Of a stretch of DNA of 64,000 nucleotides, positions 1 to 39,905 are shown in pieces. The notes under the pieces were generated by a model. It was not told the DNA's origin and did no database searches. It saw only the letters and a program-made list of their open reading frames with translations. A program made the position numbers and the translations under genes. Positions within the stretch are counted from its first letter, which is position 1. Each line of letters opens with the position of its first letter. This stretch comes from an uncultured bacterium (GTDB lineage: Bacteria; Bacillota_I; Bacilli_A; RFN20; CAG-826): positions 4,901 through 68,900 of the forward strand of contig CASFSG010000018.1 of the NCBI GenBank assembly GCA_949297305.1. Direction: 5' to 3'.

Positions 1-1528
1 TTCAAGAAAATCTATCTCTGCTTTGATGGATATTCGCCCTGATTACGCAAATAAGAAAGTCGATGGACTCTTACAAAAGGTTGATCCTAGTGAAATTAAA
101 GTAAACGATATAATCGTTGTTAATCCTGGTGAAAAAGTGCCATTAGATGGAATAGTTATCAAAGGTAATTCGACCTTAGATGTTAAAGCTTTAACTGGCG
201 AATCATTGCCAAAAGAAATCAATACAAATGATCAAATTATCAGTGGAGCAATCAATTTAACGACAAAATTAGAAATACGCGTCTTAAAAGAATTCTACGA
301 TTCAACTGTTTTTAAGATTTTAGAATTAGTCGAAAATGCTTCAAGTCAAAAATCTAAGACGGAAAATTTTATCTCGAAATTTGCTAAATTTTATACTCCG
401 CTTGTTTGCGTTATCGCTCTTTTATTAGCGATTATTCCTAGTTTAATTACTGGCGATTGGTCAACTTGGTTATATCGCGGCTTATCTTTTTTAGTCGTTT
501 CTTGTCCTTGTGCCTTAGTCATTTCAATTCCCTTATCGTTTTTTGCTGCGATTGGGGCGTCTTCGCGTCATGGCATATTAATTAAAGGTTCAACCTTTCT
601 TGAACAATTTAATCAAGTAAAAACATTTGTCTTTGATAAAACCGGAACATTGACAAAAGGCAATTTCGTCATTAAAGAAATTGTTAGCAGTAAAAAGGAT
701 GAAATTTTAAAATATGCTGCGACGGCTGAATGTGGTTCTTCTCATCCTATCGCTAAAGTCATTTTAGCGTCTTACCAAGGGAAAATTCCCCAAGATTATG
801 AAATAAATAATATCGCAGGGGAAGGTATTATCGCCTCTAAAGATAATGACATCATCTATGTCGGCAACGAACTCATGATGAAAAATCATCAAATCGATTA
901 CCAAAGAAACGATTCGGTTGGCAGCGTCATCTATGTCGCTCATAACGATGAGTTTTTAGGCTCGATTGTCATTCAAGATGAGATTAAAGAAGATGCTAAA
1001 GCATTAATCGCTGAATTTAATAAAAACAATATCGAAAGTATCATGCTAAGCGGTGACAATGAAAAAATTGTTCAAGCAGTCGCTAAAGAGATTGGGGTAA
1101 CTAGATATCAAGCCGAACTTTTGCCGCAAGATAAAGTTGCCGAGTTAGAAAAAATTATTCAAGTAAAAAATAAAAAAGATCAAGTTTGCTTTGTTGGTGA
1201 TGGAATCAATGATGCGCCTTCATTAATGCGCGCGGACATCGGTGTCGCGATGGGGGGAGTTGGTAGCGATGCATCAATTGAGGCTAGCGATATCGTTTTA
1301 ATGCACGATGATTTAACAAATCTAATGTTAACCAAAAAGATTGCAAAAAAAACGATGAGAATTGTCTATGAAAATATCATTTTCTCTTTATTAATTAAAG
1401 TAGCAATCTTAATATTATCAGCTTTTGGTATCACCAATATGTGGGTAGCAATTTTTGGTGATGTTGGGGTTGCGATTATCGCCATTTTGAATGCTTTAAG
1501 AGTTAATAGCAAATATAAAATTAAGTAA
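1..1528 (+). CDS. Heavy-metal (Cd/Zn/Co-type) translocating P1B-type ATPase, 5'-truncated by the window edge
   Basis: The reading frame is open to position 1, and the track starts at TTG 23. It carries TGES (actuator), SCPC (transmembrane metal site), DKTGTLT (phosphorylation), SSHP(I)A and GDGINDAP motifs. The N-terminal HMA domain and first helices are missing. Confidence 0.85.
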   Translation, partial: SRKSISALMDIRPDYANKKVDGLLQKVDPSEIKVNDIIVVNPGEKVPLDGIVIKGNSTLDVKALTGESLPKEINTNDQIISGAINLTTKLEIRVLKEFYDSTVFKILELVENASSQKSKTENFISKFAKFYTPLVCVIALLLAIIPSLITGDWSTWLYRGLSFLVVSCPCALVISIPLSFFAAIGASSRHGILIKGSTFLEQFNQVKTFVFDKTGTLTKGNFVIKEIVSSKKDEILKYAATAECGSSHPIAKVILASYQGKIPQDYEINNIAGEGIIASKDNDIIYVGNELMMKNHQIDYQRNDSVGSVIYVAHNDEFLGSIVIQDEIKEDAKALIAEFNKNNIESIMLSGDNEKIVQAVAKEIGVTRYQAELLPQDKVAELEKIIQVKNKKDQVCFVGDGINDAPSLMRADIGVAMGGVGSDASIEASDIVLMHDDLTNLMLTKKIAKKTMRIVYENIIFSLLIKVAILILSAFGITNMWVAIFGDVGVAIIAILNALRVNSKYKIK

Positions 1529-1630
1529 TGTTGGTGAATCAAATTGCTAATCAGCAGATTATATTTAATTTTAGAAGAAAAAATTTGATTAATGATTTAT
1601 TTATTTTGCTATTTATTTTAAAATTAAAAT

Positions 1631-2299
1631 ATGAAAAAAATCGACGAAAAATATTTTATTAAAGAAAAGCAAGTTAATTATAATCCAACCTTAGAATCGA
1701 CTTTAGAAGAAGGAGAATCGATCTTATGGCGAGCAAAGCCACTAAGAAAGTCCTTCCTCTTATCAGCTTTTTTCCGCTATTTCTTCTTCGCAATTATTTG
1801 GTTAATTTTTGACACATCTTTTGTCATAATGATGGTAATGTTTGGAGATGGAATGCCGTGGTTTGTTTATTTGATTTTAGGAATTGCTTTATTGCTCCAT
1901 CTAATGCCAGTATGGATGTGGGTAAGCGGGGTAATTTCGGCTAGTCGTAGACAAAAGATTGAAGAATATGCTTTTACTAATAAACGCATTTTAGTTAAAA
2001 AAGGTTTTATCGGTGCAAATATTATTACGATACCTTATTCTTCAATTACCAGCGTTAATTTTCGCGTTGGTCTAGTGGAAAGAATGTGTAAGGTTGGTGA
2101 TATCTATCTTGTTTATGGTAACCAAAAAGTTACATTGGAAGATATTGTTGACCCTTACTTTATTTATGAAAAACTGCAAGCAATCGCTAATGATATTAAA
2201 AGCGATATCATTTATCCTAACGCTTTAAGGCCCGATGTTAATCCTGGCTATAAGACATCTTATAAAGAAAAAGATTTTACCAAGCATATAAATAAATAA
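1631..2299 (+). CDS. Membrane protein with a bacterial PH (bPH_2/YdbS-YdbT-like) domain
   Basis: It has two hydrophobic helices followed by the KRILVKKGFIGANIITIPYSSITSVNFRVG pattern typical of the DUF304/bPH_2 family. Confidence 0.45.
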   Translation: MKKIDEKYFIKEKQVNYNPTLESTLEEGESILWRAKPLRKSFLLSAFFRYFFFAIIWLIFDTSFVIMMVMFGDGMPWFVYLILGIALLLHLMPVWMWVSGVISASRRQKIEEYAFTNKRILVKKGFIGANIITIPYSSITSVNFRVGLVERMCKVGDIYLVYGNQKVTLEDIVDPYFIYEKLQAIANDIKSDIIYPNALRPDVNPGYKTSYKEKDFTKHINK

Positions 2300-2439
2300 T
2301 ATGCATTTTTTGAATTTATTTTAATCTATACCTTTTAGACACTAATATTTTATTTTGATATAAATAGCGATAGATTATTGCTTTTAAAATTTTAGATATG
2401 TTATGGTATGAATTATAAATAGCAAACAATCTAGTAAAT

Positions 2440-2467
2440 TTGACCCTGGGGGTGGGCTCATTATAAT
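2440..2467 (+). promoter_or_regulatory. Sigma-70-type promoter for the tasA-like/sipW operon
   Basis: The -35 is TTGACC (2440-2445), the spacer is 16 nt and unusually GC-rich (ctgggggtgggctcat), and the -10 is TATAAT (2462-2467). An ACACAT-N4-ATGTGT palindrome (2475-2490) lies in the 5'UTR and an AAGGAG RBS precedes the ATG at 2510. Confidence 0.55.
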
Positions 2468-2509
2468 ATAGACAACACATATAAATGTGTGGAAAAGGAG
2501 AAATAATTT

Positions 2510-3271
2510 ATGCAAAAATCTTACAAAAAAGCCCTAACAATTGGTATTGCTACCTTTAGTGCAGTGGCTTTAATTGCCACAGGTACTGCTGCCTTTATTC
2601 TTATGACGGGCGGAAGTGATTCATTGGACGGATCTGTCACAGTTGGTGAGGTTGAAGATAATAGTATCGTCGTTGATGCTTATATTGGTGATGCCGGTAC
2701 CAATTCGTTTAGTTATATTTTTGATTCAAAAGAAAACGATACAACTGGTCGCGTTCAATGGGACGGATCAACTCATGAGTCTTTAACTAACACAATTACT
2801 GTTTCGATTACTCCAGCCGCAGGTGCGGATATTACTCAAACAGATATTAATAACGGTTATTCATTAAGTTATACGGTGGAAGTTGTCGCTACTGGTGATG
2901 AAGCTACTACTTTTGCTAAGTATGTTACTACTAAAGGTGCATCGAGCGAAACAGCTGCTAGTGAAAAAGAATTTTTACAACTTACTAGTGGTACGTCGAC
3001 TGGCGATATTAGCAATGAAAATTTAGTAAGTGTCGGTGCATCTAACGCAATCACGATGCCTACTGAAACGAACACAACGACTACTTTTAGTGTAAATTTT
3101 GCTTGGGGTAGTTATTTCAATTATCAAAACCCATCGGAATATTATGATGGTGATGGTGCTAGTGTCTCTTTGGGCGATTCGACAACCGGCGTTAAAGGTG
3201 CTCTTAACAAATTACATTTATTAAACGGTATTAAGTTAAAGATTACCGTTAATGCTGTCAAAAATAGGTAA
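2510..3271 (+). CDS. Secreted TasA/CalY (camelysin)-like protein with a SipW-cognate-type signal peptide
   Basis: The N-terminus MQKSYKKALTIGIATFSAVALIATGTAAF...SLDGSVTVGEV resembles TasA/camelysin (K-rich start, hydrophobic core, GGGTWAAF...TGTLDL). The mature part is Thr/Ser-rich. The gene sits directly upstream of the sipW-like gene. Confidence 0.5.
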   Translation: MQKSYKKALTIGIATFSAVALIATGTAAFILMTGGSDSLDGSVTVGEVEDNSIVVDAYIGDAGTNSFSYIFDSKENDTTGRVQWDGSTHESLTNTITVSITPAAGADITQTDINNGYSLSYTVEVVATGDEATTFAKYVTTKGASSETAASEKEFLQLTSGTSTGDISNENLVSVGASNAITMPTETNTTTTFSVNFAWGSYFNYQNPSEYYDGDGASVSLGDSTTGVKGALNKLHLLNGIKLKITVNAVKNR

Positions 3272-3297
3272 TTTAGTGTTTGTTTGTTAATTAATAA

Positions 3298-3326
3298 ATG
3301 ACGCATGGAGTTAATCTATGCGTCAT
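3298..3326 (+). terminator. Stem-loop (partial terminator or attenuator) after the tasA-like gene
   Basis: ATGACGCAT (3298-3306) pairs with ATGCGTCAT (3318-3326) as a 9-bp perfect stem with an 11-nt loop. The downstream T-tract is weak, so read-through into sipW is likely. Confidence 0.4.
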
Positions 3327-3464
3327 ATGTGTTATTAAAATACCTAATTTTACTTCAAAAAAATTGTTCTTTATATATAATATAAAAACACCAAATTTTG
3401 CTTATGAAATCTAATAGGCGAGAAAGGAATTGATTGCAAGAAATATTTCGCGACATGAAAGATT

Positions 3465-4484
3465 ATGAGTAGTAGCCAAAAAGAACTTTTAGTGCTCATC
3501 GTCACCTCGTTGTGCGTCATTTCTTTAGCGATTGTTTTCACCCTTTTTTATCTTCATTATTATAAAAATTCCCTCGATGCGATTAAAGAAGGTCGCAGGG
3601 ACATCGAATTAATTGATGATAATATCAACGAACAAATCAAGGCAAAATCTAAAAAGCACAAAGCCTTTAAAATTGCGATGAAGGTTTTATCCTATTTAAT
3701 CAGCGCGATGGTCTTAGCGATTTTTATCATCGCTTTAATTAATCGTTTTAGCGGTGGTGATATCGTCGTTGGTAATTCGACAGTCATCGTCGTTAAGACC
3801 GGTTCAATGAGTGAAGTTAATGCCGCTAATAGGGAAGAATTAACTGGTTATGATAACCAAATCCCAACTTGGTCATTGATCGGAATTAGTAAGGTTAATG
3901 AAGAAGATTTAAAACCTTACGATGTCATTGCTTTTTTTGAAAGTAATTCTAATCAAATCATCATCCATCGCATCATTGATATTATGGAAGATGCAAATGG
4001 GCATTATTATGTAACTAGAGGCGATGCCTTAGCAAGTGAAGATGGTTATCATCCGCGTTATGAAGCGATTATTGGTCGCTATAACAACTTCCATATTCCC
4101 TATGTTGGTTTGTTTATCTACTTTTTACAGACTAATTCTGGGATTGTTACTATCTTATCAATTATTTACTGCTTAGTGCTCTTTGGTGTCTTAAGCGATA
4201 AAATCGCCAAAAAAGAAAAAGAAAGAAAAGATGAATTAATTTCTGTCATTGATATTGATTTAGCAATCAAAGAAGTCAATCACGATATCATCGAAAAGAT
4301 TTATTATCACGGTTATGTCTATTCATTTAAAAATAATGAGTTTATATCGAAAGAGAAAATTTTAGAAGGAGATGAACACCTACCATCTAAAAAGAACGAA
4401 TTGATTAAGGTTATTGAAAACCAAGACGAGACAAAAGTGATGTCGAGTATTATTGAGATATCTTTCAAGGAGGAAAATAAATGA
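3465..4484 (+). CDS. sipW: SipW/ER-type signal peptidase I (S26B)
   Basis: VVKTGSMSEV carries the Ser nucleophile, the IIIHRIID...YVTRGDA region carries the catalytic His as in SipW/archaeal-type SPase, and there is a C-terminal TM helix (GLFIYFLQTNSGIVTILSIIYCLVLFGVL). It has an extra N-terminal TM and a roughly 100-aa C-terminal extension. The start codon is uncertain because there is no clear RBS. Confidence 0.6.
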   Translation: MSSSQKELLVLIVTSLCVISLAIVFTLFYLHYYKNSLDAIKEGRRDIELIDDNINEQIKAKSKKHKAFKIAMKVLSYLISAMVLAIFIIALINRFSGGDIVVGNSTVIVVKTGSMSEVNAANREELTGYDNQIPTWSLIGISKVNEEDLKPYDVIAFFESNSNQIIIHRIIDIMEDANGHYYVTRGDALASEDGYHPRYEAIIGRYNNFHIPYVGLFIYFLQTNSGIVTILSIIYCLVLFGVLSDKIAKKEKERKDELISVIDIDLAIKEVNHDIIEKIYYHGYVYSFKNNEFISKEKILEGDEHLPSKKNELIKVIENQDETKVMSSIIEISFKEENK

Positions 4485-6292
4485 AAAAAGTTTACTTCAC
4501 GCGCAAGAATTTAATTGAACTAGGACTAGTTTTTCTCTTCTATGTCCTATTTTTATTTATCTATGTTTGCGTCGATGGCAAGCATCTATTTTTCGCTGAA
4601 GAAAATCCAATTGAATTACTTTATTTAGGATTTAGTTTCCCATCTATTTCTTTAGGAAGTGTCGGCTATTTACTCGGCTTCTTGTTTTGCATCTATGGCG
4701 TTCTTTATGACGCTGGATTAATTCTAATTAGAAGGTTAATTAAATTTAGACGCGAAAGATTTTTCTCTACTAAATGGGTTTTAATTAATGTTGGTTGGGG
4801 AGCGGTTTGTTTGCTTTTAGGCTTTGGCTTAGGGACTATTTTGGCTGCGATTATTAGCAAAGATAATCTTCAACCACTTTTGATGGCTTTTGGTGGTACT
4901 CTCTTATTAACAGTTCTTTTATATCTGCTTTTAGCTTTAGTTATCGGGGCAATCTTTATGCTCATCATCAACTTTAAAAATATCGATAAACCATATCGCT
5001 TCTTTAATATTAGCGAAGAAGAACAATATGAACGCAAAATCGATTTAGAAGAAGAAAAAGATGAAGCTAAACAAAATGACGTCGGGGCTTCCTTTGGTGA
5101 AAGTAGCCTTACTAGTATCAATAATGTCGTTAGTGGAGTAAGTGCTGCCTCACCTACTGAAAGTGTTGTCTCAACCGAATTTAAACTAGGCGATCGCGAA
5201 AAAGTTTTCCCATCTTTATCGATGATTGATCGCGATTATTCTGGTTTTGAAGAAGATAAATTGCCCGATATCGATATCACTTTAGAAAATCTATGTCTTT
5301 TGTTTAGAAATTATTTATGTAAGAAAGAAAATCTATATTTCGACATTGAAACAATTCGTAGTTTCATTTCTGCCTTAGGGACGAGTAGAATTGTCATTTT
5401 AGAAGGTTTAAGTGGTACTGGTAAATCATCTTTACCGCGTTATTTTGCTAAATTTATTTCTTCGGAGCCAACCTTTATTGCTGTCCAAACAACTTTTAGA
5501 GATAAATCATCCCTAATTGGTTATTTTAATGATTTTAGTCAAACATATAATGAGACGGATTTTTTAAAAGCCTTATATCGCGCAAATTATCAAAAAGATC
5601 ATCTCAATTTTATGGTTTTAGACGAATTTAATATCGCGCGTGTCGAATATTATTTTGCCGATTTCTTATCTTTGCTTGAATATCCAAAACAAGATTGGAA
5701 AATTCGCGTGATGAATTTGCCTTATGATTTTAACGCTCCGGTGATGCTCCATGATGGCTTATTAAAAATTGAAGAAAATACCTTCTTTATTTGCACGGCC
5801 AATAAAGATGATTCAACCTTCACAATTTCTGATAAAGTTTATGACCGCGCGATCATTTTAGACTTTGATGATCGCAATGAAGAATTTAGTGTCGATGAAG
5901 AAGTTAGTGAGATTCATTTAAGTTATCACCAATTAATGGATTTATTTAACGCTGCTAAAAAAGAAAAGAAAAATAATTTGACGAGTGATGATTTAAGAAG
6001 ATTTAAGATTTTAACCGATTTTGTTTTAGATAATTTTGATGTTGCCTTCGGTAACCGCGTCCTCAATCAAATTGAAAATTTCGTGCCGATTTATGTTAAA
6101 ACTGGCGGTAATAAAGCCGAAGCTTTAGATTTTATGTTCGCGCGCAAGATTTTATATAAGATTGAAGGTCGTTATGAAGATTATATTAAAAATAGTCTCA
6201 TCGCTTTGAAGAAGTTAATTGAAAAAACTTATGCAAAAGATGAATTTAAGATGAGCAAGCATCTCATCGAAAGGATGATTAAGAGATTATAA
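4481..6292 (+). CDS. Membrane-anchored McrB-like AAA+ (AAA_5) NTPase
   Basis: The first ~170 aa carry 4-5 predicted TM helices, followed by an acidic linker (EEEQYERKIDLEEEKDEAKQND) and an AAA+ core. The core has Walker A GLSGTGKSS, FMVLDEFNIARVEYYFADFLSLLE (compare McrB DEINRAN...F..LLE) and DKVYDRAIILDF (compare McrB DxALxRRF). A GGAGG RBS is present and the ATGA start overlaps the sipW stop. Confidence 0.6.
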   Translation: MKKVYFTRKNLIELGLVFLFYVLFLFIYVCVDGKHLFFAEENPIELLYLGFSFPSISLGSVGYLLGFLFCIYGVLYDAGLILIRRLIKFRRERFFSTKWVLINVGWGAVCLLLGFGLGTILAAIISKDNLQPLLMAFGGTLLLTVLLYLLLALVIGAIFMLIINFKNIDKPYRFFNISEEEQYERKIDLEEEKDEAKQNDVGASFGESSLTSINNVVSGVSAASPTESVVSTEFKLGDREKVFPSLSMIDRDYSGFEEDKLPDIDITLENLCLLFRNYLCKKENLYFDIETIRSFISALGTSRIVILEGLSGTGKSSLPRYFAKFISSEPTFIAVQTTFRDKSSLIGYFNDFSQTYNETDFLKALYRANYQKDHLNFMVLDEFNIARVEYYFADFLSLLEYPKQDWKIRVMNLPYDFNAPVMLHDGLLKIEENTFFICTANKDDSTFTISDKVYDRAIILDFDDRNEEFSVDEEVSEIHLSYHQLMDLFNAAKKEKKNNLTSDDLRRFKILTDFVLDNFDVAFGNRVLNQIENFVPIYVKTGGNKAEALDFMFARKILYKIEGRYEDYIKNSLIALKKLIEKTYAKDEFKMSKHLIERMIKRL

Positions 6293-7662
6293 TGCGCCTC
6301 AGCAATGCGATAAGTTTATTTAATCAAGCCTCATCGTTAAAAAGTTCGCTTTTAATCGCGAATAGTTTTGAAGATTATTTCGCTACGCTTAACAAGATGA
6401 AAGTTATAGATCTTAATCAAGATAGTTATCGCATTGATTTTTTGACATTACAAGAATTGAACTCTTTATTAAATACCATTTTATCGATTACGCGTCGCCA
6501 TTATCGCTCTTTTAAAAATAATGAAATCGTTTTGCGAAGTGAACTCGTTAGAAACTTCGACAATGAATCATTTATTAAAACGACGAAAGAGATGTCGTTT
6601 TGGCATCAAAAAGATTTTAGCGTCAAGCCGATGTGGGTTTATACTTATGAAATGGTCGATGATTTAAATACTTATGAAAATCGTCTTGTTATTTCCGCTT
6701 TAAGACGCATTGAATTAATTATTAAAAATTATGATTATTACTACGCGCATCAAGTCGCAATATTAGAAAATAATTTAAACAAAAACGATTTTAGTTACGC
6801 TTCCTTTTTATATAAAGATAATCGCATCTTAAATGCGAATTTATTATCGAAGGAAAATGCTTCATCTAAGGAGATTGATGAATATATCTTAAAACTTAAA
6901 GCGAAGATTAAGAAAATTCAAAATACGCCTTTTTATCTCGCGTTAAAAGATATTCCTCTAGTTATAGGAAAAGTAGCGATGACAAACATCTTTAAAGAAA
7001 ATCATCTTTATAACAAAGTCTATCGCTTTTATTATCAAACCCATCAATATTTAAATCAAACATTAGGCGATGAATCATTAATAGATTATAGTTATTTTTT
7101 AATCATTAAAACTTTAATCAAACAGGGCTATCAAATTAAACAAGATAATTTAGCATTTCATTTGTTAAATGAAAAATCCATCATTTTAGCGACACCGATA
7201 AGGTTTTTAGGAAAAGATTTTAATTTAGAATTATCTTATCTAAAGGAGAAAAAAGCCTTTTTAATTAAAGTTATTAATGCCTGGCGAAAGAGTGATGAAT
7301 CGACAAATTTAATCTATCTTCATTATAGCTTCAATGATAACGAGGTTAATTTAACTCCTTTAAAAAGTGGCGAATATAATAATATCTATTTATATAGTTA
7401 TGACAAATTATGGGTTTATCAAAACGATCAATGGTCAGTTGCTAAATTTTCTTTAGAACAAACCGATCAAGATATTATTGACATTATTTTAAAATCATTC
7501 ACTAATATCATCGAAGGTAAAGATGAAATATATGCAACTATTTGTCCTTATTGTGGTAGTCGTTATCTTTTAGAAGAAAATAAAAGCTACCATTGTTTAA
7601 ATTGTCACAAAAATTATGTGATTTTGCGCAAAAATCAAATCTGGATTAAAGAAAATATATAG
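6292..7662 (+). CDS. Zinc-ribbon protein in the McrC position (putative partner of the McrB-like NTPase)
   Basis: A TAATG stop/start overlap couples it to the upstream gene. The C-terminus has CPYCGSRYLLEENKSYHCLNCHK (CxxC-x15-CxxC). I could not recognise a PD-(D/E)xK nuclease motif with confidence. Confidence 0.35.
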   Translation: MRLSNAISLFNQASSLKSSLLIANSFEDYFATLNKMKVIDLNQDSYRIDFLTLQELNSLLNTILSITRRHYRSFKNNEIVLRSELVRNFDNESFIKTTKEMSFWHQKDFSVKPMWVYTYEMVDDLNTYENRLVISALRRIELIIKNYDYYYAHQVAILENNLNKNDFSYASFLYKDNRILNANLLSKENASSKEIDEYILKLKAKIKKIQNTPFYLALKDIPLVIGKVAMTNIFKENHLYNKVYRFYYQTHQYLNQTLGDESLIDYSYFLIIKTLIKQGYQIKQDNLAFHLLNEKSIILATPIRFLGKDFNLELSYLKEKKAFLIKVINAWRKSDESTNLIYLHYSFNDNEVNLTPLKSGEYNNIYLYSYDKLWVYQNDQWSVAKFSLEQTDQDIIDIILKSFTNIIEGKDEIYATICPYCGSRYLLEENKSYHCLNCHKNYVILRKNQIWIKENI

Positions 7663-7672
7663 GTAAAAATGT

Positions 7673-8425
7673 ATGGAAAATAGCGAAAAACAGGTGGCGA
7701 TAAAAATTGAGCATTTAAAAAAATCTTACGGCAAAAAAGAAGTTTTGCACGATTTAAATCTAGAAGTCTATCGCGGCGAACTCTTTGGCTATGTTGGAAA
7801 AAATGGCGTCGGTAAATCGACGACAATCGATTGTTTAATCGGAGCGAAGAAATTTGATGAAGGCCATATTTATCTTGGTGGCTATGAGATTAATAAAGAA
7901 CCTTTCCGCGCGAAAAAACAATTCGGCTATGTTAGCAGTGAGCCAGTGACATATGAAATGATGACTGGTTATGAATATTTGCAGTTTATTGGCTCAGTGT
8001 ACGCTATTAGTGATGAAGCCTATAAAAATAATCTTGCCTATTTATCTAATAAATTTGATTTACCATCGCGCGACTTGAATAGTGTCATCTCTTCCTATTC
8101 GCATGGGATGAAGCAAAAATTGTGTCTAATTGCTTCTTTAATGCATAATCCGGAGATTTGGATTTTAGATGAACCGACTGTTGGCTTAGACATTATGGTC
8201 TTTGAAACATTAAAGAATATGATGATGGAATTTACAAAACATGGTCGAACAATTTTTATTACTTCCCATAATATCGATTTAGTTGCTAAGATTTGTGACC
8301 GCGTCGCATTGATTAATAACGGGAAAATTGAAAAGATTGTCGATTTAAAAAACGATCCCGACAAACGTTATCAATTGCATAAAATATTTTTAGATATGTA
8401 CGCTTATAAGGAGAAAAATGCTTAG
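7673..8425 (+). CDS. ABC transporter ATP-binding protein
   Basis: It has Walker A GKNGVGKST, the signature YSHGMKQKL, Walker B ILDEPTVGLD and the H-loop TSHNI. Confidence 0.85.
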   Translation: MENSEKQVAIKIEHLKKSYGKKEVLHDLNLEVYRGELFGYVGKNGVGKSTTIDCLIGAKKFDEGHIYLGGYEINKEPFRAKKQFGYVSSEPVTYEMMTGYEYLQFIGSVYAISDEAYKNNLAYLSNKFDLPSRDLNSVISSYSHGMKQKLCLIASLMHNPEIWILDEPTVGLDIMVFETLKNMMMEFTKHGRTIFITSHNIDLVAKICDRVALINNGKIEKIVDLKNDPDKRYQLHKIFLDMYAYKEKNA

Positions 8426-10016
8426 TTTAATTAAAAAAGAATTTAAATTAAATCCCTTCTTTTTAATTCCTAATAAAAAGAACTGGTTTTCTTTTATTAT
8501 CTTTTTCATTTTACTAATTGGCTTAATTTTATTAGAATCATTCATTTTTAATACTCTTTATCATCGTTTTGATGAATACGAAAATGGCGCTTTTGCTTTT
8601 AGCAATATTTTCTTAATTATCATCGCTTTTATTTCGTTATTAATTGCCATTTTTTATATTCAAAAAATATATTTTAATCAATTAGATATGTTTTTAATCA
8701 TCAATAAGCCTTTAGATTATGTCAAAATTTTATTATCGAAATTTCTATATGCTTTATTAGTTAATTACTTATCGTCCTTGCTCTTTACTTTGCCACTTTT
8801 TATCCTTTTAGCGACCTATCAAGAGGTTTTTAACTTCTTCACCTTCTTTATTGGTTTATTCTTCCCCTTGTTTTTATCTATCTTTAATCTTGGCCTAGCT
8901 TTAATTTTAGCGGTTCCCATTCAATATGCTTATAAATTCTTAAAGCAATTCCCTTTGTTACAATTATTAGTAGTTGCCATCTTTTTAGGTTTCTTCTGCT
9001 ATGGCTATTCCCTCGTTCTCAATTTGTTTATTGATTTAATTAATAACAATTCTTTAGGTACTTTATTTTCTGTCGATAGTTTAACGCGAATGACTTATCT
9101 TTCGACGCATTTTTATCCTTATTCTTTGCTGACGAATGGCTTTATTCATTATCATTATGGTCTATCCTTTACCGTCTTTTTATTAATCGCTATTAACCTA
9201 ATCTTGTTAGGTCTAATTCTCGTTGGTTTATTTTACCTAAAGCTCAACCAATTTACTTTTGTTTTAAAGCACCATAATAAAAGTCAATATCCCATTTTAA
9301 AAGATACGAAAGCAATCATTAAAAAAGAGTTTATTTTATTATTTAAAGAGAACAATACGACATATTCTTTCACCTCTTTATTAATTTTAGAACCAGTTTT
9401 AACTTATTTAGTAATCAACGCGATTAATGTCGCTCTTTTAAGAGGTAATCTATCAATTTATTTAGGTATTATGCCTTATTTATTAAATAATATCGATTTG
9501 TTAATTGCTCTATTATTTTCTAGCGTCATCTCTTTAAATGCAATCAACATTTATCAAAGTGAAAATAAAGCGATTAGAGTGATGAAATTTATCCCCTATT
9601 CGTTATATAAACATATCTATATTAAATTATTAATTCCTTATTTTGTCAGCGCGATAGCGACTATCATCGCCTTTATTATTTTAGTTTCTACCTCGTTAAT
9701 TGGAGTAGACACTTTCTTGATGGGTCTTTTGTTTGCCTTAGCAATTAATTTTGTTTTGATGGTCTTACTAATGCGCGCGCAATTAAGAAATGATAAATAT
9801 AAAAAGGTTAATAATTCTTTACCTTCTTTTATTTCATTTCTCGTTCCTTTAGCGATGGTGGTAATCAACGTTTTATTAGGTGCTTTTTTAGGCTTAAAAA
9901 ATATTTACACTTATTTAATTGATTTATTCATTATCGCTTTGCCTTTAGGTTATGTTATTTATTATTTAATCAAACGTTTTAAAGATGATGTTTACGCTTT
10001 GGAGGTCATCAATTGA
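8418..10016 (+). CDS. Polytopic membrane protein, putative ABC permease partner (unusually long)
   Basis: Roughly 12 hydrophobic segments, an AAGGAG RBS, and a start that overlaps the ATPase stop. I could not assign a family. Confidence 0.5.
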   Translation: MLSLIKKEFKLNPFFLIPNKKNWFSFIIFFILLIGLILLESFIFNTLYHRFDEYENGAFAFSNIFLIIIAFISLLIAIFYIQKIYFNQLDMFLIINKPLDYVKILLSKFLYALLVNYLSSLLFTLPLFILLATYQEVFNFFTFFIGLFFPLFLSIFNLGLALILAVPIQYAYKFLKQFPLLQLLVVAIFLGFFCYGYSLVLNLFIDLINNNSLGTLFSVDSLTRMTYLSTHFYPYSLLTNGFIHYHYGLSFTVFLLIAINLILLGLILVGLFYLKLNQFTFVLKHHNKSQYPILKDTKAIIKKEFILLFKENNTTYSFTSLLILEPVLTYLVINAINVALLRGNLSIYLGIMPYLLNNIDLLIALLFSSVISLNAINIYQSENKAIRVMKFIPYSLYKHIYIKLLIPYFVSAIATIIAFIILVSTSLIGVDTFLMGLLFALAINFVLMVLLMRAQLRNDKYKKVNNSLPSFISFLVPLAMVVINVLLGAFLGLKNIYTYLIDLFIIALPLGYVIYYLIKRFKDDVYALEVIN

Positions 10017-12466
10017 TGTCAAAAAAAGCCCTGCCTTTATTATTAGCTTTACCATTTGTCATCTCGCTGGTGTCAATTTATGTCATCGACTATAATGTCA
10101 TCCAAGTGAGTGAAGATTTGACTGATATCCGTCTACCATATCAGCAAAACGCTGGATTTTTAATTAATACAAAACACGAATTAAATGCGACCCCACTAGG
10201 CAGTCAAAAGGCTCTTTCTGATTTAGGAAACGCTTTAATTTGGACTAGTAGCAACGAAGATATTGCGACTATTCTTCAAGAAGATGATAAATATTATTTA
10301 GTTGCTAACTTAGAAGGGGAAGCGACAATCAGCGTCTCAAATCTTCGTCAAACTATTTCGCGTTCCTTCAATGCAATTATTTATGATGATGGGGCAATTA
10401 TCATTAACCCTAAGGAAAATTATTCTAATGCGATGATCGATGATGTTCAATATTTTGGTGAATATGATTTTAATGGTGATTATAGTGGATCTATCGATAA
10501 AACATTAGGCTTAGATATCGAGGTTCTTCCTAGCGATTTAACCCCAAGCTTAATCGTCAAAGAAACTAGCATGAATATCGCCTATATGCAAGAGAGCATC
10601 TCCTTTGGTTTAATTCGTAATCCAGTTGAAGAAGCTTACATCACTTTTGCACTTGCCGGTTCAAAAATTGAATCCACCTATGAATTTAAAATCGTTAAAG
10701 ATGGTTATAACATCTATTCTTATAATGATTTGCTCCATGCGACGAATTATTCTATTAGTGGCGAAATTGCTGTTATGCAAGTTAATTTAGAATCATTAGA
10801 AAAAACTTATCAAGTCGATGAAGATGGTCGCTATCTTAACCAATTGCTAAACGAAGATACTTTATTATTTGGAAATTATGATTTCGCACAGAAAAAATTT
10901 AATTTTGCGAAGGAAATTTATCGCTATGAAACGACTTATAACGATAATTTTATTAGCGAATGGAATAAGAAATACCCCGATGAATTAAGCCGAATTGACA
11001 ATCGATTAAATGTGGGTATTCATGTTCAAAAATCATTTTACGGGAACGGTTTTATTATCAACGGGCACAATTTGACTTATCCTAGCGGTCGACAAATCAC
11101 TAGCGAGGGCGAAGCACCTTTATTAATGAAAGATGATTTGTTCCGTGGGCCATTACCTTTTGTCGCTTTAGGTAATCATAACTACTCATCTAATCTCATT
11201 ATCGAGGCTTATGGTCAAGATAATTCCTTAATTTATCTTGATGGTGACAATATTACCATCAACGATTTAAATATTCGCTCGTGCGATTTTGGTGATAATT
11301 TAAACAATTTAAATACGGTTGGGACTTGCATTGATGTTTTAGGTGATAATATCACGATTAAAAATAGTCAAATTCGCAACGCGAAAAATAATTTGCGAGT
11401 TTATTCCTCGAAGAATTTTCTTTTAGATAATTCGCTTTTAACGAACGCACGACAATTTTTATTAGCAATTGGGACGAATGAATTCGCCAAAATTGATCAT
11501 CAAAAAGAAATTAATATTCATTCTTTAGATAACAAGGTGATTAAAACGACGATTGATAATTATTTCGCTCGCGAAGGAATTGCAGATAATCTTCTAATGG
11601 TGATGGCTTCTTATGGTTTGATGGAAAATAATATCACTTATGATAATTTGATGGTTTATCTAAATGAATTAGATAGCTTATTAAACGATCAAGGCTATTT
11701 GGTGGAAGAAGATGGCTCTTTATATCGCTCAAGCGTCAATGTTAACGATACTTATTTTTACCAAAGCGGTATCGCTTCGATATCTTTAGAGACGATGTTT
11801 AATGGCCCATATATTTATAATAATGTTCCATCTTTAATTAATGATTTATTGGGTGGCGGTGGCTTATATCAAATGTTAGATATGCATCATCTTTCAGGTG
11901 TTAATTACCCTAGTGAATTAACTCTAGGTGGCAACACAAAATTTTATGATTATAAAGACATTGAAAATTTAGATGTTTCTTCAATCATTTCACAAAATAT
12001 TGTCAATGTCTTAAAGACTTTGTTTGGGGAAGAATTTGATGAAATGTTTGGAAATGTCGATGAAGTTAATGTCGATAACTTCTTCCCATATCGCTCGATC
12101 ATTAAAGAAAACGCCGATAAATTGAATTTTGCTACTTATGAGTTAGATGAAAATAGTGGTGAATTAAAGATGCATGTCAATACCCCTATCGTCTATTATG
12201 GCGGTGGTTTAAATTTATCAAAAGTGATTGATAATTCTATTTCTAGCAAGTACTTAAGTTCGACTTTTAATGTTGATATCGTCGAATATTCTTTGAATAA
12301 TTTAAGCGGGAATGTTGGCGAGATGTTATTTACCTTGCTCGCTAGATGTGTCCCGATTGCTATTGGCTTTCAGCCTTTTAAAGTGCAAGGCTATTTAGAT
12401 GGATATTTATATGGGGAGACCCCTTCAATAAACGATTTAAAAATAAATGCGGAGGAAAATTTATGA
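10013..12466 (+). CDS. Large secreted/anchored protein with right-handed parallel beta-helix repeats
   Basis: An N-terminal signal anchor (KKALPLLLALPFVISLVSIYVI) is followed by repeated N-I-T-I-x-N/D-S segments (NITINDLNIRSC, NITIKNSQIRNA, LLDNSLLTNA) typical of PbH1 beta-helices. The true start is probably ATG 10016 (GGAGG at 10001), overlapping the upstream TGA. Confidence 0.5.
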   Translation: MMSKKALPLLLALPFVISLVSIYVIDYNVIQVSEDLTDIRLPYQQNAGFLINTKHELNATPLGSQKALSDLGNALIWTSSNEDIATILQEDDKYYLVANLEGEATISVSNLRQTISRSFNAIIYDDGAIIINPKENYSNAMIDDVQYFGEYDFNGDYSGSIDKTLGLDIEVLPSDLTPSLIVKETSMNIAYMQESISFGLIRNPVEEAYITFALAGSKIESTYEFKIVKDGYNIYSYNDLLHATNYSISGEIAVMQVNLESLEKTYQVDEDGRYLNQLLNEDTLLFGNYDFAQKKFNFAKEIYRYETTYNDNFISEWNKKYPDELSRIDNRLNVGIHVQKSFYGNGFIINGHNLTYPSGRQITSEGEAPLLMKDDLFRGPLPFVALGNHNYSSNLIIEAYGQDNSLIYLDGDNITINDLNIRSCDFGDNLNNLNTVGTCIDVLGDNITIKNSQIRNAKNNLRVYSSKNFLLDNSLLTNARQFLLAIGTNEFAKIDHQKEINIHSLDNKVIKTTIDNYFAREGIADNLLMVMASYGLMENNITYDNLMVYLNELDSLLNDQGYLVEEDGSLYRSSVNVNDTYFYQSGIASISLETMFNGPYIYNNVPSLINDLLGGGGLYQMLDMHHLSGVNYPSELTLGGNTKFYDYKDIENLDVSSIISQNIVNVLKTLFGEEFDEMFGNVDEVNVDNFFPYRSIIKENADKLNFATYELDENSGELKMHVNTPIVYYGGGLNLSKVIDNSISSKYLSSTFNVDIVEYSLNNLSGNVGEMLFTLLARCVPIAIGFQPFKVQGYLDGYLYGETPSINDLKINAEENL

Positions 12467-13548
12467 AAAAATTACGAACTTTAATGTTGAGTTTTTTAGC
12501 GTTGTTATCTTTAGGCACTTTATCTTTAACTAGTTGCAGTAGTTTTTTAAAAAGCGATGTTGTCATGATTGATGATATTATCGCTAGTTATGATAGCGAA
12601 GGTAATCTAGTTTTAACAATCACTTTCACCGATGATGCCGAAGAGCCAATTCAAGTGAAAGTTCCGCAAGGTAAAACGGGAAATGGTATTGCCAATATCA
12701 CCCATACACCTAGCGATAATAATTCGACCATTATCACGATTACTTATACTGATAGTTCAATTAGTCCAACGACATTTGAAGTTTTAAATGGTTCTTATAT
12801 TGTTTCAATTACTGAAAATATTGATCCAATTAGCGGCAACAATACAATTGAAGTTACCTTAAGTAATGGAGAAACATTTTCTTTTGTAGTTCCGCGCGGC
12901 GAACCAGGAAAAGATGGCGTGTCAATTACTGATATCACTAGCGAAGTTTTAGAAGATAAATCGACCATCATTACAATTACTTTATCAGAAGGCGATCCTG
13001 TTACAGTAACGATTCCTTCTCCGCTTGATGGTAAAGACGGTCGCGGGATTGATTATATTACGATGACAACTTCTACTGAAGGTGATGAATACATTTTAAC
13101 TATTTATTATGATCAAGGTGATTCGCAATCATTTAGTTTTGATAAACCTAATACTTGGCATAGCGGTAACACCAGCCCGCTTAATTCATTGGGTATCGAT
13201 GGCGACTTTTATTATTGGACGAGCCAATATCGCATTTATCAAAAGATTGCTGGGGAGTGGGTTTTAGTCGCAGATTTAGGTTCAACCCCCGAACTAGAAT
13301 CTTATGTCGTTTCTTTTGATTTAGTTAGCGAAGAAGCGGTGATGAATGGGAATATGGCTTATGAAATACCATATGGTCACTATTTCTATAGTGAAGGTTA
13401 TGATTTGCCGATTCCTTATTTAGCAAATTATAATTTCTTAGGGTGGTATACTTCTAAAGATGATAAACCGACAAGCGGCATCTTTACCGATACGACCCCA
13501 GTCTATCGCAATATGACTTTATACGCGCGTTGGGAGGAAATCATTTAA
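12463..13548 (+). CDS. Lipoprotein with three G-x-x-G-x-D-G collagen-like modules and a C-terminal Listeria-Bacteroides (Flg_new) repeat
   Basis: The lipobox is LTSCSS. The three modules are GKTGNGIANITHT, GEPGKDGVSITDIT and GKDGRGIDYITMT. The C-terminus YNFLGWYTSKDD...TLYARWEE matches the Flg_new repeat. The ATGA start overlaps the upstream stop. Confidence 0.55.
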   Translation: MKKLRTLMLSFLALLSLGTLSLTSCSSFLKSDVVMIDDIIASYDSEGNLVLTITFTDDAEEPIQVKVPQGKTGNGIANITHTPSDNNSTIITITYTDSSISPTTFEVLNGSYIVSITENIDPISGNNTIEVTLSNGETFSFVVPRGEPGKDGVSITDITSEVLEDKSTIITITLSEGDPVTVTIPSPLDGKDGRGIDYITMTTSTEGDEYILTIYYDQGDSQSFSFDKPNTWHSGNTSPLNSLGIDGDFYYWTSQYRIYQKIAGEWVLVADLGSTPELESYVVSFDLVSEEAVMNGNMAYEIPYGHYFYSEGYDLPIPYLANYNFLGWYTSKDDKPTSGIFTDTTPVYRNMTLYARWEEII

Positions 13549-13555
13549 AAAAGCA

Positions 13556-14239
13556 ATGAAATATAAGAAATCGCTTTTTATTGTCGCTACATTCTTTTCA
13601 TCTTTAGCCCTTTTAAGTGCAGGTTTTTCTGCTTTTACAATTATTAATAGCGAAGATGAAATTAGTGGTGAGATCTTAGCGGCGAATGTCTTAGCGGTTA
13701 ATTATGTCACTAGCGGCGACGATATCACTAATGGCATAAAAAGCTTTAAATATAACGAATATGGTTTTGAGCAAGAAACTACCTACAGTAATAAAACCTA
13801 CAAATATTGGTCGAAAACTGAAGACGTTAATTTAGGGTTATATTTTTACGTTAATTGTGCGCGAACATCAACTTTTAATATTTCCTTTAGTGTCAACTTT
13901 AAGCAGAATAACACCTCGTTAAATTTTATTAATTCTTATTATAAAAGTGATGATGGTTATGGTGCTGCTTGTTATGGTGATGGTAGTTTAACTAATTTAA
14001 CTAATAGTCAAAATCTTCTTAATAGCGCGACAACTATTAACGACAACTCATTAACGACAACATTTACCATCAATAATTTAGAACTAAACGCTCATAGTAA
14101 TTACTTTTTTGCTGTCAATTATACTTTTGGTAATTTTGTTAGTAGCGATTATTCGTCAGTAAAAAACTTTCTAGATTCAGGTAACATTTTTACTTTTTCT
14201 ATCAACGCGACAGCGAGTGAACTAGGAGGCAATAGTTAA
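13556..14239 (+). CDS. Secreted protein with a SipW-cognate-like signal peptide
   Basis: The N-terminus MKYKKSLFIVATFFSSLALLSAGFSAFTIINSEDEISGEILAANVLAV resembles the TasA-class signal region. The mature part is Asn/Ser/Thr-rich. Confidence 0.45.
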   Translation: MKYKKSLFIVATFFSSLALLSAGFSAFTIINSEDEISGEILAANVLAVNYVTSGDDITNGIKSFKYNEYGFEQETTYSNKTYKYWSKTEDVNLGLYFYVNCARTSTFNISFSVNFKQNNTSLNFINSYYKSDDGYGAACYGDGSLTNLTNSQNLLNSATTINDNSLTTTFTINNLELNAHSNYFFAVNYTFGNFVSSDYSSVKNFLDSGNIFTFSINATASELGGNS

Positions 14240-14240
14240 A

Positions 14241-16535: not shown

Positions 16536-16612
16536 ACTAAGTTGCTTATATTAAAAAATATTTAATCGTCTTTTACATAAATATGTATATAATTATGTAG
16601 GAGGCTTTTATT

Positions 16613-38251: not shown

Positions 38252-39868
38252 ATGAAAATTAATAAAAGTTATCCTATTGCCTTAGGCGCTTTGCTAGTTG
38301 CTGGAGCTTGTGCTTTAACTAGTTGCCCAGGTGGTTCGAGCAGTGGTGGTGGCACCGGTGGCGGTTCTGGTGGAGGTAGTGATATTGACACAATCGTCAA
38401 TGATGTGGAAATGGAAGAGGATAAAGTAATTTTTGCCAATGAAGAAATTTATGTCTGGACGATCGTTGGTGATCCCGACTTAGCCGGGCAAAAAGTTCTT
38501 TTTGAAGAATTCAACCGCGAATACCGTGGGGAAATTGCTTTAAGTTATCGCAATGTTGGTCACTATGACTTCTATAACACTTTAGAAGATACTTGGGCGA
38601 ACGATCCTGAATCTTTCCCTGATTTAATCATTATGCATAATGAAAAAACTGCGCAATACGCTCATCAAGGAATGATTCGTCAAATCGATTCGATTTTAGA
38701 AAATCCGGAATGGTCATCTTATTATGAATACGATTTTTCACAAGCTTATGAAAATATCGATCGTTCACAATTTTATAATGGCCATCGCTATGGCATTCCA
38801 ATGGATGCCCATGGTTTCTTAACCCACATTCGTCAAGATATCATTAAGAAAAATAATTTAGGCTTTGACAATAATACGCGTTTTGTTCCTGAATCGCGCG
38901 CTGAATATCAACAATTACTTGAAGGTCTACGTCAAAAAGCTGATTCGAGCGAAGGACTATTAGTTCGCAATCTCAACAAAGGTCAAAATCACGCTTGGAA
39001 GAAAGTTAATGCTAGCGTTTTCCTTCCAGAATTCAACCAATCGACCGATCCTGATGGTTTAGGTGCTATCTATGCCAATGGCGGTCGCCTCGCTAGCGAA
39101 GATGGTTTAACAATTGAATTCCATCAAAATCAAGGTTTCCAAACATACTTAACTGATTTAGTCGATCGCTGGAACAATCGTTTAATGGGTGAGCCAGGCA
39201 CTAATGTTGAATCCTTCTCACAAGGTAATACAGTCATGTTCTCCGAAGGTCCTTGGTGGACATATGGTCAATATGATAATGATATGAATAACGATGAATT
39301 AAAGACTGCGAATTCGGCTTTAGGCGTCACGGAAGATGATGCAAATGATCCTGTCTATTCTAACCCAATGATTGCTGTTAATTCAGCAGGTTTTTGGACG
39401 CTAGATGATAATTTAAGTAGTGAAAATGGTCATAAATGGTACGCGAATGGCCATGCCTTTAGCATCTCTTCAAGAGTTACCTCTTTGACGAAGATTTATG
39501 CCTGTTTAGAATTCATCAATTGGTATACTCAAGGTCAAGAGGAAGATGGTTCCTATCGTTTGGCAGAATGGTGCCGTTATGGTCATATGCCTGCTTATAA
39601 AAATGTTTATGAATCGCAAGGCTATCAAGATTTAATGGCTGAAAACCTCACCGTTCGCGGCTTAGGTTCTCCTGAAGACGTCATTTCGATGGAAGCATTG
39701 CCATATCAAGTGACAATCTTTGATTGCGTCGCTAACTGCGTAAATAATGTCATTATGGGCTTAAAAGGCGGCACGATTACTGATACCGCCGGAGCACTTC
39801 AAGCGATGAATGAAACTGTCACCAGTGCTCAAACGATGCTCGACTTAATGTCTAGCGGTATTTTCTAA
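38252..39868 (+). CDS. ABC sugar transporter substrate-binding lipoprotein
   Basis: The lipobox is LTSCPGG and a Gly/Ser linker follows. The fold is consistent with a family-1 solute-binding protein. An AAGGAGG RBS is present. Confidence 0.7.
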   Translation: MKINKSYPIALGALLVAGACALTSCPGGSSSGGGTGGGSGGGSDIDTIVNDVEMEEDKVIFANEEIYVWTIVGDPDLAGQKVLFEEFNREYRGEIALSYRNVGHYDFYNTLEDTWANDPESFPDLIIMHNEKTAQYAHQGMIRQIDSILENPEWSSYYEYDFSQAYENIDRSQFYNGHRYGIPMDAHGFLTHIRQDIIKKNNLGFDNNTRFVPESRAEYQQLLEGLRQKADSSEGLLVRNLNKGQNHAWKKVNASVFLPEFNQSTDPDGLGAIYANGGRLASEDGLTIEFHQNQGFQTYLTDLVDRWNNRLMGEPGTNVESFSQGNTVMFSEGPWWTYGQYDNDMNNDELKTANSALGVTEDDANDPVYSNPMIAVNSAGFWTLDDNLSSENGHKWYANGHAFSISSRVTSLTKIYACLEFINWYTQGQEEDGSYRLAEWCRYGHMPAYKNVYESQGYQDLMAENLTVRGLGSPEDVISMEALPYQVTIFDCVANCVNNVIMGLKGGTITDTAGALQAMNETVTSAQTMLDLMSSGIF

Positions 39869-39905
39869 AAGTAATCTAATTCTTTAAATAAAGGAGTAGC
39901 AAATT

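Follow-up and report, generated by a model that had tools for sequence, protein, structure and literature searches.

A membrane-anchored, McrBC-derived GTPase pair in a SipW-type surface-protein operon of an uncultured Bacilli bacterium

McrBC is the textbook GTP-dependent restriction enzyme. We describe here a derivative of it that is encoded in a 64,000-nucleotide (nt) stretch of DNA, referred to below as 'the window', from an uncultured bacterium of the Bacilli (GTDB lineage Bacillota_I; Bacilli_A; RFN20; CAG-826; assembly GCA_949297305.1, contig CASFSG010000018.1, positions 4,901 to 68,900). Two adjoining genes specify a 603-amino acid (aa) AAA+ protein and a 456-aa partner, which together form a pair that descends from McrBC and belongs to the NxD branch. 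This pair has lost the modules with which McrBC binds and cuts DNA, and has gained a four-helix membrane anchor. The GTPase domain and the partner are cytoplasmic, and their genes are linked within one operon, over deep divergence, to a SipW-type signal peptidase, to proteins that bear a common signal motif, and to an ATP-binding cassette exporter of the ABC-2 type. A sister clade, termed 'class B' below, displays an independent and differently arranged linkage to sipW, and to enzymes of cyclic di-GMP (c-di-GMP) signalling. In our judgement, the pair is probably a membrane-tethered GTPase machine that drives or gates the biogenesis of SipW-dependent surface proteins, and not a restriction system.

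The GTPase and its partner

The AAA+ gene spans positions 4481-6292 of the window and the partner gene positions 6292-7662, both on the + strand, as are all features of the operon. The ATG of the AAA+ gene overlaps the TGA of sipW as ATGA (AAATGAAA), and that of the partner gene overlaps the TAA of the AAA+ gene as TAATG (TTATAATGCGC). An earlier reading of this DNA, made from the letters and open reading frames (ORFs) alone and called here the sequence-only reading, had given the same ORFs and overlaps, and the ORF coordinates bear it out.

The AAA+ domain (nt 5201-6292) carries a Walker A motif, GLSGTGKS, at aa 309-316 (nt 5405-5428), and a Walker B motif, LDE, at aa 380-382 (D381-E382, nt 5621-5626), followed by NIxRVEYYFADFLS; both motifs are invariant in 120 homologues. 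At the sensor-1 position is the sequence N441-K-D-D444 (nt 5801-5812). N441, K442 and D443 do not vary among these homologues, position 444 is D in 119 and E in one, and a DKVYDR motif follows in which R456, too, is invariant. BLASTP aligns N441-K-D-D with N-M-D-E of CnuB, the GTPase of a Type I-A CoCoNuT system, and with N-T-A-D of Escherichia coli McrB. It is by the signature 'NxD then D/E' that Bell et al. (2024, PMC11090510) delimit the NxD branch among McrB-like GTPases. The CnuB sequence used here, taken from the supplementary table of that paper, is 40% identical to the window protein over 137 aa (E=1e-26). The shared stretch includes a nearly identical LDE(F/M)N(I/L)ARVEYYFADFLSLLE, and a second aligned segment reads TANKDDSTFTISDKVYDRAI in the window protein and AVNMDETTHHLSPKVLDRAH in CnuB.

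Among proteins of solved structure, E. coli McrB is the best sequence match (PDB; E=0.003 for the sequence alone and 0.32 for the profile of its family), which upholds the motif alignment to McrB proposed in the sequence-only reading. That reading had also called the protein 'unmistakably' McrB, a verdict that stands in part. Pfam detects AAA_5 alone, at 22.3 bits against a cut-off of 22, and the AlphaFold2 model displays an AAA+ fold whose Foldseek matches are a mixture of MCM, NorQ and McrB; by itself, the search with the modelled fold appears equivocal between McrB and MoxR. Sequence comparison, on the other hand, places the AAA+ domain with CnuB and McrB. We assign the window protein, on its sequence, to the NxD-clade McrB-like GTPases because of its similarity to CnuB and because its partner belongs to a DUF2357 family.

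In place of a DNA-binding domain, the N-terminus of the GTPase (aa 1-170, nt 4481-4990) comprises four transmembrane (TM) helices, at aa 8-30, 59-89, 97-125 and 127-166, on which hydropathy and AlphaFold2 agree. The mean confidence score (pLDDT) of the model is 77, and that of the TM helices approximately 80-90. Basic residues are found at the N-terminus, in the loop at 85-96, and after TM4; by this positive-inside pattern, both termini and the NTPase domain are predicted to be cytoplasmic. TM4 is followed (nt 4991-5200) by a juxtamembrane motif conserved among homologues, NIDKPYRFF, by an acidic helix at aa 177-204, and then, in the AlphaFold2 model, by a disordered linker (aa 200-233) that extends up to the AAA+ domain and ends in a conserved pre-GTPase motif, REKVFPxLSxID. 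Searches of the Pfam type find no DNA-binding family in aa 1-170. The 'four to five' helices, acidic linker and missing DNA-binding domain of the sequence-only reading thus hold, with the count of helices settled at four. We set aside one resemblance in this region, to the flagellar protein FlhB. The GTPase-family profile matches TM3-TM4 and linker of FlhB (8z5s_x) at aa 102-217 of the GTPase (E=4.3e-4), with an ID-x-P-(F/Y) motif common to both immediately after the last TM helix. No family member matches the Pfam FlhB model, Bac_export_2, and so the similarity is probably an effect of TM and charge composition.

The partner, taken by itself, has no match in Pfam, PADLOC or the PDB, and its affinity is apparent only at the level of the family. 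A word-index search yielded 4-5 partner homologues, even with an eight-sequence profile; an exhaustive profile search of representative sequences, used instead, gathered 541 clusters at 50% identity, mostly of 410-490 aa. The partner evolves quickly: homologues are 24-41% identical where their GTPases remain 47-72% identical. DUF2357 (PF09823) is matched by 31 of 60 diverse family members, with a best E-value of 1e-9 and with scores (30.8, 29.1 and 25.6 bits) above the cut-off of 23.3, and the match spans the region of an invariant Y-E-N(R) motif. The family profile also matches, at 66.9 bits over positions 55-287, the RefSeq DUF2357 protein WP_192930687.1, whose gene directly follows that of an NxD GTPase on a plasmid of Deinococcus; this protein, too, ends in a CPxC...CxxC ribbon.

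From these comparisons, the partner consists of a DUF2357-type N-terminal half (approximately aa 55-280, nt 6454-7131), with invariant Y-E-N and T-N...Y-N..Y motifs; a beta-rich middle region of approximately 135 aa; and a C-terminal zinc ribbon, C418-xx-C421-x13-C435-xx-C438 (nt 7543-7605), whose spacer is of 13 residues and not the 15 counted earlier. Invariant in the family are W104, E129, N130, N232, Y240 and the four cysteines. Profile searches of the PDB return zinc ribbons, of which the L37Ae type is the one resembled, and a weak PadR-like stretch only; they do not detect E. coli McrC. Modelling was of little help: the AlphaFold2 model of the partner, built from five sequences, has a pLDDT of 44, Foldseek finds nothing at E<=0.001 with this low-confidence model, and one truncated CnuC sequence, compared with the family by hhalign, gave no information. 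The partner has neither a TM helix nor a signal peptide and is thus predicted to be cytoplasmic.

DUF2357 is the McrC N-terminal domain, which inserts into the McrB ring and activates it (PMC11090510, citing Niu et al. 2020), and in some CoCoNuT CnuC proteins the nuclease is inactivated and the CPxC motifs are reduced (PMC11090510). In the window family, models of PD-(D/E)xK or McrBC nucleases match none of the 60 diverse homologues, in agreement with the sequence-only reading, which saw no clear nuclease motif, and no D, E or K is conserved across the family alignment in aa 280-415. A DUF2357 domain with neither a nuclease match nor conserved catalytic residues marks the partner, as judged from the family alignment, as a McrC/CnuC homologue that has lost nuclease activity; possibly the nuclease fold is gone too. 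In one homologue, P0124, known from a single 5.2-kb contig, a DivIVA-like segment (PF05103) stands in place of the first ~100 residues, which might reflect either a genuine gene fusion or a chimeric assembly.

The operon and its homologues

The pair lies within a block of ORFs, positions 2510-16535, that all lie on one strand and either overlap or are separated by very short spacers. Immediately upstream of the GTPase gene is the gene for a 339-aa signal peptidase I of the SipW (archaeal/ER) type (nt 3465-4484). It matches NCBIfam TIGR02228 at 62.6 bits against a cut-off of 51.85 and displays the catalytic motifs GSM...HR...GD. The SipW equivalog model also matches (E=3e-18), but at 66 bits, under its cut-off of 190, and we refer to the peptidase therefore as SipW-like, and not as an orthologue. 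It has an extra TM helix at the N-terminus and a C-terminal tail of approximately 95 aa. Further upstream, at nt 2510-3271, a secreted protein of 253 aa is encoded, with a single hydrophobic segment (by hydropathy) at its N-terminus. This belongs to a paralogous family of ~250-aa proteins, of which related loci have 1-7 copies upstream of sipW. The signal peptide of the 253-aa protein has at its end G-(T/F)-(A/S)-x-(F/W), which resembles SipW-dependent signals; in the family alignment, GFAxW is conserved at the end of the signal, and a motif WG..F..NP..YN is also seen. The family has no match among Pfam, NCBIfam or PDB families. Identity with TasA was considered for the secreted proteins and rejected, there being no Peptidase_M73, TasA or camelysin match in these same three collections; the ~250-aa proteins are putative SipW substrates by their signal motif.

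Downstream of the partner are genes for an ABC transporter ATPase of the DrrA/ABC-2 type (nt 7673-8425) and a polytopic permease of 532 aa with approximately 12 TM helices by hydropathy (nt 8418-10016). The ATPase matches Pfam ABC_tran (E=5.7e-25) and the NCBIfam drrA subfamily (E=7.5e-50, under the cut-off of that model), and Pfam 12TM_1 (PF09847) matches syntenic homologues of the permease. Four translationally linked genes for exported proteins, recognized by their N-termini and hydropathy, complete the block (nt 10013-16535). They encode an 817-aa protein anchored at its N-terminus, a lipoprotein of 361 aa that contains a Listeria-Bacteroides repeat (Flg_new/TIGR02543), and proteins of 227 and 764 aa whose signals end G-(F/L)-x-x-(F/W), matching the candidate substrates upstream. 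From the ABC ATPase to position 16535, the spacers are of -8 to +10 nt.

This arrangement is conserved. Look-ups of homologues 47-50% identical to the window GTPase revealed the identical gene order every time. A contig scan with a single-protein query returned four close relatives only; a scan of metagenomes supplied 80 further loci, which we annotated with hidden Markov models built from the window proteins. Three classes can be distinguished. Class A, with 57 loci including the window, spans 36-93% identity and comes from human-gut, rumen and other gut metagenomes, and from metagenome-assembled genomes labelled 'uncultured Bacilli bacterium'. The order in this class, constant from the ABC ATPase to the lipoprotein, is: 1-7 ~250-aa secreted proteins, sipW, the four-TM GTPase, the partner, the ABC ATPase, the permease, a ~800-aa protein, a lipoprotein, and more exported proteins, with both the ATPase and the exported-protein genes keeping their places. 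In 50 of the 52 loci with enough flanking sequence, sipW is immediately upstream of the GTPase gene, and the partner gene is immediately downstream in 49 of 49. The pair is therefore syntenic with itself and with sipW, and the partner, as had been proposed from the window alone, occupies the position of McrC.

Class B, which is met with on Clostridia-like contigs, comprises about 25 loci in which the GTPase domain averages 41% identity to the family of the window. These GTPases, of approximately 510 aa, have one TM helix and then what appears to be a coiled coil, and their partners join DUF2357 to a long E/K/R-rich tail and have no zinc ribbon. A SipW-like gene, of approximately 270 aa, directly adjoins the pair, and several proteins of 280-400 aa have signal peptides that end GT(V/Y)AWF; TIGR04088 gives a sub-threshold match on one class-B protein only. 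Class-B loci also carry membrane EAL and GGDEF-EAL proteins, which links the module to c-di-GMP signalling. In one such locus (L064, 10513-15829; also in L062, L063, L068, L086 and L087), sipW is followed by genes for a two-TM EAL protein, a PNP_UDP_1 phosphorylase-like protein and a membrane GGDEF-EAL protein of approximately 1010 aa.

Class C comprises five loci (average identity 48%) with multi-TM N-termini homologous to those of class A and with zinc-ribbon partners that align full-length with the class-A partner profile. In three of the five (L054, L056 and L059, from rumen and gut), the pair lies between gatA/gatB, epimerase and polysaccharide genes, in a neighbourhood that is conserved; the GTPases in these loci are multi-TM proteins of 800-870 aa and the zinc-ribbon partners are of 1050-1190 aa. 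The C-terminal repeats of the L056 partner match a PADLOC candidate, PDC-S18 (E=1e-8). The pre-GTPase motif VFPxL..ID is common to all three classes. The membrane domain of the window protein is homologous to the multi-TM domain of class C (hhalign probability 87%, E=3.7e-6); no homology was found between the four-TM domain and the single-TM, coiled-coil N-terminus of class B, where the hhalign match (probability 71%) is to the pre-GTPase motif only. In a rough neighbour-joining tree, with plasmid NxD-E proteins as outgroup, A and C group together, as sister to B.

None of 72,556 plasmids has a record that covers at least 80% of the GTPase query, that is, a full-length homologue; plasmid relatives share the GTPase domain only, at 29-38% identity among the matches listed. 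A phage collection gave two partial matches only. One human-faecal contig labelled 'Bacteriophage sp.' (MT835511.1) contains, unannotated at 39776-41107, a GTPase relative 30.5% identical over query residues 189-561 (E=2e-49).

Around the operon in the window are genes for a P-type ATPase, a bacterial PH-domain membrane protein, an NAD synthase and CNNM transporters, and, farther out, glycoside hydrolases. These are housekeeping or carbohydrate-metabolism genes; no mobile or defence-related genes were seen among those flanking the operon, which is a surface-protein operon and not a defence island, as the sequence-only reading held. The PH-domain (bPH_2) protein, of 222 aa, is encoded directly upstream of the operon (1631-2299) and also precedes it in L001 (3042-3710; 93% GTPase identity) and L004 (7157-7825; 47%), and it may be a member of the system. 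Downstream, at 16613-18721, an NAD synthase/CN-hydrolase begins with 50 aa that resemble a Phd/YefM antitoxin (E=9e-5, under the Pfam cut-off). Far downstream, among GH43/GH2 genes at 43682-46435, is a MalK-like ABC ATPase of 917 aa, unusually long for its family, in which ABC_tran is matched in two stretches, together with MalK OB and TOBE domains.

Consensus scans offer some candidate signals, for descriptive use only since site counts were not above those of shuffled controls. The best sigma-70-like site, TTGACC-16-TATAAT, is at 2440-2467, upstream of the gene for the 253-aa protein. The best terminator-like site within 1500-17000 is a hairpin with a 12-bp stem at 3298-3326, between that gene and sipW, which may be an attenuator that sets the stoichiometry of subunit to machinery. 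Promoter and hairpin in this arrangement recall pilus operons, in which the major subunit is followed by an attenuator.

Relation to known systems

The sequence-only reading knew of no description of such a module, and in this it was mistaken. In a survey of McrBC systems, Bell et al. (2024, eLife, PMC11090510) named the 'CoCoPALM' systems in one paragraph, linked that branch to signal peptidases and pilus assembly, and deferred its analysis; our literature search turned up no follow-up on CoCoPALM and no other description. The window family resembles CoCoPALM, as compared by its published description, in its NxD-clade GTPase with a membrane-spanning N-terminal fusion, its DUF2357 partner, and its conserved link to a SipW-like gene of the signal-peptidase family and to putative subunits of a fibre or pilus. 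Class B agrees with what was published. The window family differs from it in several respects. It has four TM helices and a short acidic helix where CoCoPALM has an FtsB-like single TM helix and coiled coil (a Pfam search found no DivIC/FtsB match). Its partner ends in a beta-rich region and zinc ribbon, whereas the McrB and McrC homologues of CoCoPALM both have coiled coils. Its sipW is upstream and translationally coupled, and its operon includes, in addition, an ABC-2 exporter and four large proteins for export. It shares two of the four stated features of CoCoPALM, then, the NxD GTPase and the signal-peptidase association; the other two, an FtsB-like fusion and coiled coils in both members of the pair, it lacks. 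With its added exporter block, we regard it as a variant of a named but uncharacterized kind, and not as categorically new.

CoCoNuTs (CnuB/CnuC) are predicted RNA-targeting, McrBC-like restriction systems of the NxD clade. The GTPase core motifs are nearly identical to those of the window protein (LDEMNLARVEYYFADFLSLLE; NxD then D/E; DRA), and partners of the CnuC type join DUF2357 to CPxC zinc ribbons, with the nuclease often inactivated or missing. Unlike CoCoNuTs, the window pair has no long coiled coil, no CSD, YTH or other nucleic-acid-binding domain, and no associated HEPN or other nuclease; it has a membrane anchor, and it resides in a chromosomal surface-protein operon instead of on a plasmid or in an island. 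Canonical McrBC (E. coli, Thermococcus) has in common with the window pair the Walker A and B motifs, Nx(x)D, the trailing arginine, the two-gene organization with the DUF2357 partner downstream, and, for the GTPase, the best match of any solved structure. The window pair is not a canonical member, however: sequence similarity to its GTPase is weak, TM helices replace the N-terminal DNA-binding domain of McrB, the signature is NxD and not NxxD, and the partner has no PD-(D/E)xK nuclease.

The remainder of the operon calls to mind the TapA-SipW-TasA and SipW-BsaA systems of Bacillus and Clostridium, in which a dedicated archaeal/ER-type peptidase is encoded with its own secreted substrates, and the signal peptides of these end in motifs like G-x-x-A-x-F. 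The secreted proteins of the window differ in matching no TasA/camelysin model, and we know of no AAA+ GTPase, McrC-like protein or ABC exporter in those operons. Finally, the MoxR-VWA modules (RavA-ViaA, NorQ-NorD and CbbQ-CbbO) offer a functional analogy, being two-gene modules that act on protein complexes and not on DNA; the window pair differs from these by its DUF2357, instead of VWA, partner, by the NxD signature, and by its sequence affinity to McrB/CnuB.

What the pair might do

The mechanism we envisage runs as follows. Subunits of the 603-aa protein would assemble into the usual AAA+ ring at the cytoplasmic face of the membrane, each anchored by four TM helices. The 456-aa partner would plug its DUF2357 domain into this ring and stimulate the hydrolysis of GTP, in the way that McrC acts on McrB. 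Since the McrB DNA-binding domain and the McrC nuclease are both gone, we propose that the resulting GTP-driven conformational cycle acts away from DNA, on components of the membrane or the secretion apparatus. Working with the co-translated SipW-type peptidase and the ABC-2 exporter, the pair would supply power to, or else gate, the steps by which surface proteins are processed, released and assembled; in uncultured gut Bacilli, these proteins would be a dedicated, SipW-dependent set that makes up a fibre, pilus or coat. We infer each of these elements, namely ring formation, stimulation of the GTPase, physical coupling to SipW or the exporter, and the biological role itself. Of the two roles offered by the sequence-only reading, membrane-associated defence or repurposing for surface-protein secretion and assembly, the evidence favours the second.

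A bolder version can be entertained, tentatively, as a minority view: that exaptation has turned a restriction motor of the McrBC type into the engine of a hitherto unrecognized export or fibre-assembly machine, and thus of a new class of GTP-powered secretion or assembly. A ring with 6 x 4 TM helices, a DUF2357 plunger, the SipW peptidase and the ABC-2 exporter would together build the fibre or coat. If so, the exapted machine would occur widely among the uncultured Bacilli of gut and rumen, and other Firmicutes would have it in the CoCoPALM form.

Several points weigh against a surface-biogenesis machine. Its role is read from gene context alone, and the ancestry of the pair is that of a defence system. 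Class C, the nearest multi-TM relatives, has no sipW within 10 kb, from which it follows that the pair can work without SipW. TasA/camelysin models find none of the secreted proteins, and it is by a short motif that these are putative SipW substrates. Residues 280-415 of the partner may hide a cryptic, divergent nuclease or another effector fold. And a regulator in place of a motor fits the same data.

The last of these, which we think unlikely as a whole, would make the pair a switch: a checkpoint that, with no mechanical work on substrates in either case, licenses SipW cleavage or ABC export or else uses the zinc-ribbon partner to relay the state of the envelope to gene expression. The long cytoplasmic extensions on SipW could serve as regulatory docking sites, the class-B loci contain EAL and GGDEF-EAL signalling proteins, and the zinc ribbon is of a type common in nucleic-acid-binding or regulatory proteins. 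SipW of Bacillus subtilis, moreover, is reported to act through its C-terminus as a regulator, independently of its peptidase activity. Yet AAA+ rings of the NxD clade are mechanochemical machines, the very strict conservation of the GTPase catalytic motifs suggests a demanding enzymatic cycle, and the ribbon is the only domain of a DNA-binding type that was found.

We consider it improbable, too, that the pair is still immune, a membrane-associated defence or abortive-infection module of the McrBC/CoCoNuT type whose ring senses invading nucleic acid, or its injection, at the membrane, with membrane damage or a change of the surface as effector, and with the sipW operon as regulated output or mere neighbour. 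It retains what probability it has because of the McrBC ancestry and because class C exists without sipW. Plasmid relatives of the GTPase domain adjoin DUF2357 proteins, transposases and a methyltransferase, the faecal 'Bacteriophage sp.' contig carries a homologue of 30% identity, and the zinc ribbon could bind nucleic acid. The sole match in a defence database is to PDC-M26A, a component of an unpublished PADLOC candidate system (E=7.9e-40, to the GTPase core only, profile positions 299-439 of 724). All the NxD GTPases tested, plasmid CoCoNuT-like proteins included, match this profile to a similar degree (1e-32 to 1e-45), whereas the partner and the sipW product have no PADLOC match and the full PDC-M26 system is not present. 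PDC-M26A thus marks the NxD clade as a whole and is uninformative about defence at this locus. Nor was any nuclease, DNA/RNA-binding specificity domain or set of conserved catalytic residues found. Defence islands are usually patchy and variable; this pair keeps a fixed order and translational coupling in a 13-kb surface-protein operon across 36-93% identity, among housekeeping flanks, and no full-length copy is found on the plasmids searched.

That the window protein is instead a MoxR-type AAA+ chaperone with an unrelated adaptor, as the Pfam match to AAA_5 only might suggest, we reject as highly improbable, its similarity to the NxD McrB-like CnuB being far stronger than to any MoxR, its sensor-1 bearing the NxD signature, and its partner being DUF2357 and not VWA/MIDAS.

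We return, then, to a GTPase machine for surface-protein biogenesis. Were this role to hold, an immune machine would have been put to use in assembling the envelope or fibres, or vice versa; the CoCoPALM branch, named but unanalysed, would acquire a function; and a GTP-driven component would be added to the biology of SipW/TasA-type fibres. The invariant motifs, the three architectural classes and the c-di-GMP link of class B provide handles for experiments, so that the exaptation, striking as it would be, is also tractable, in a module of a kind flagged previously in the literature and whose function we infer. For the abundant uncultured Bacilli of the human gut, it would mean a major surface structure that has so far gone uncharacterized.

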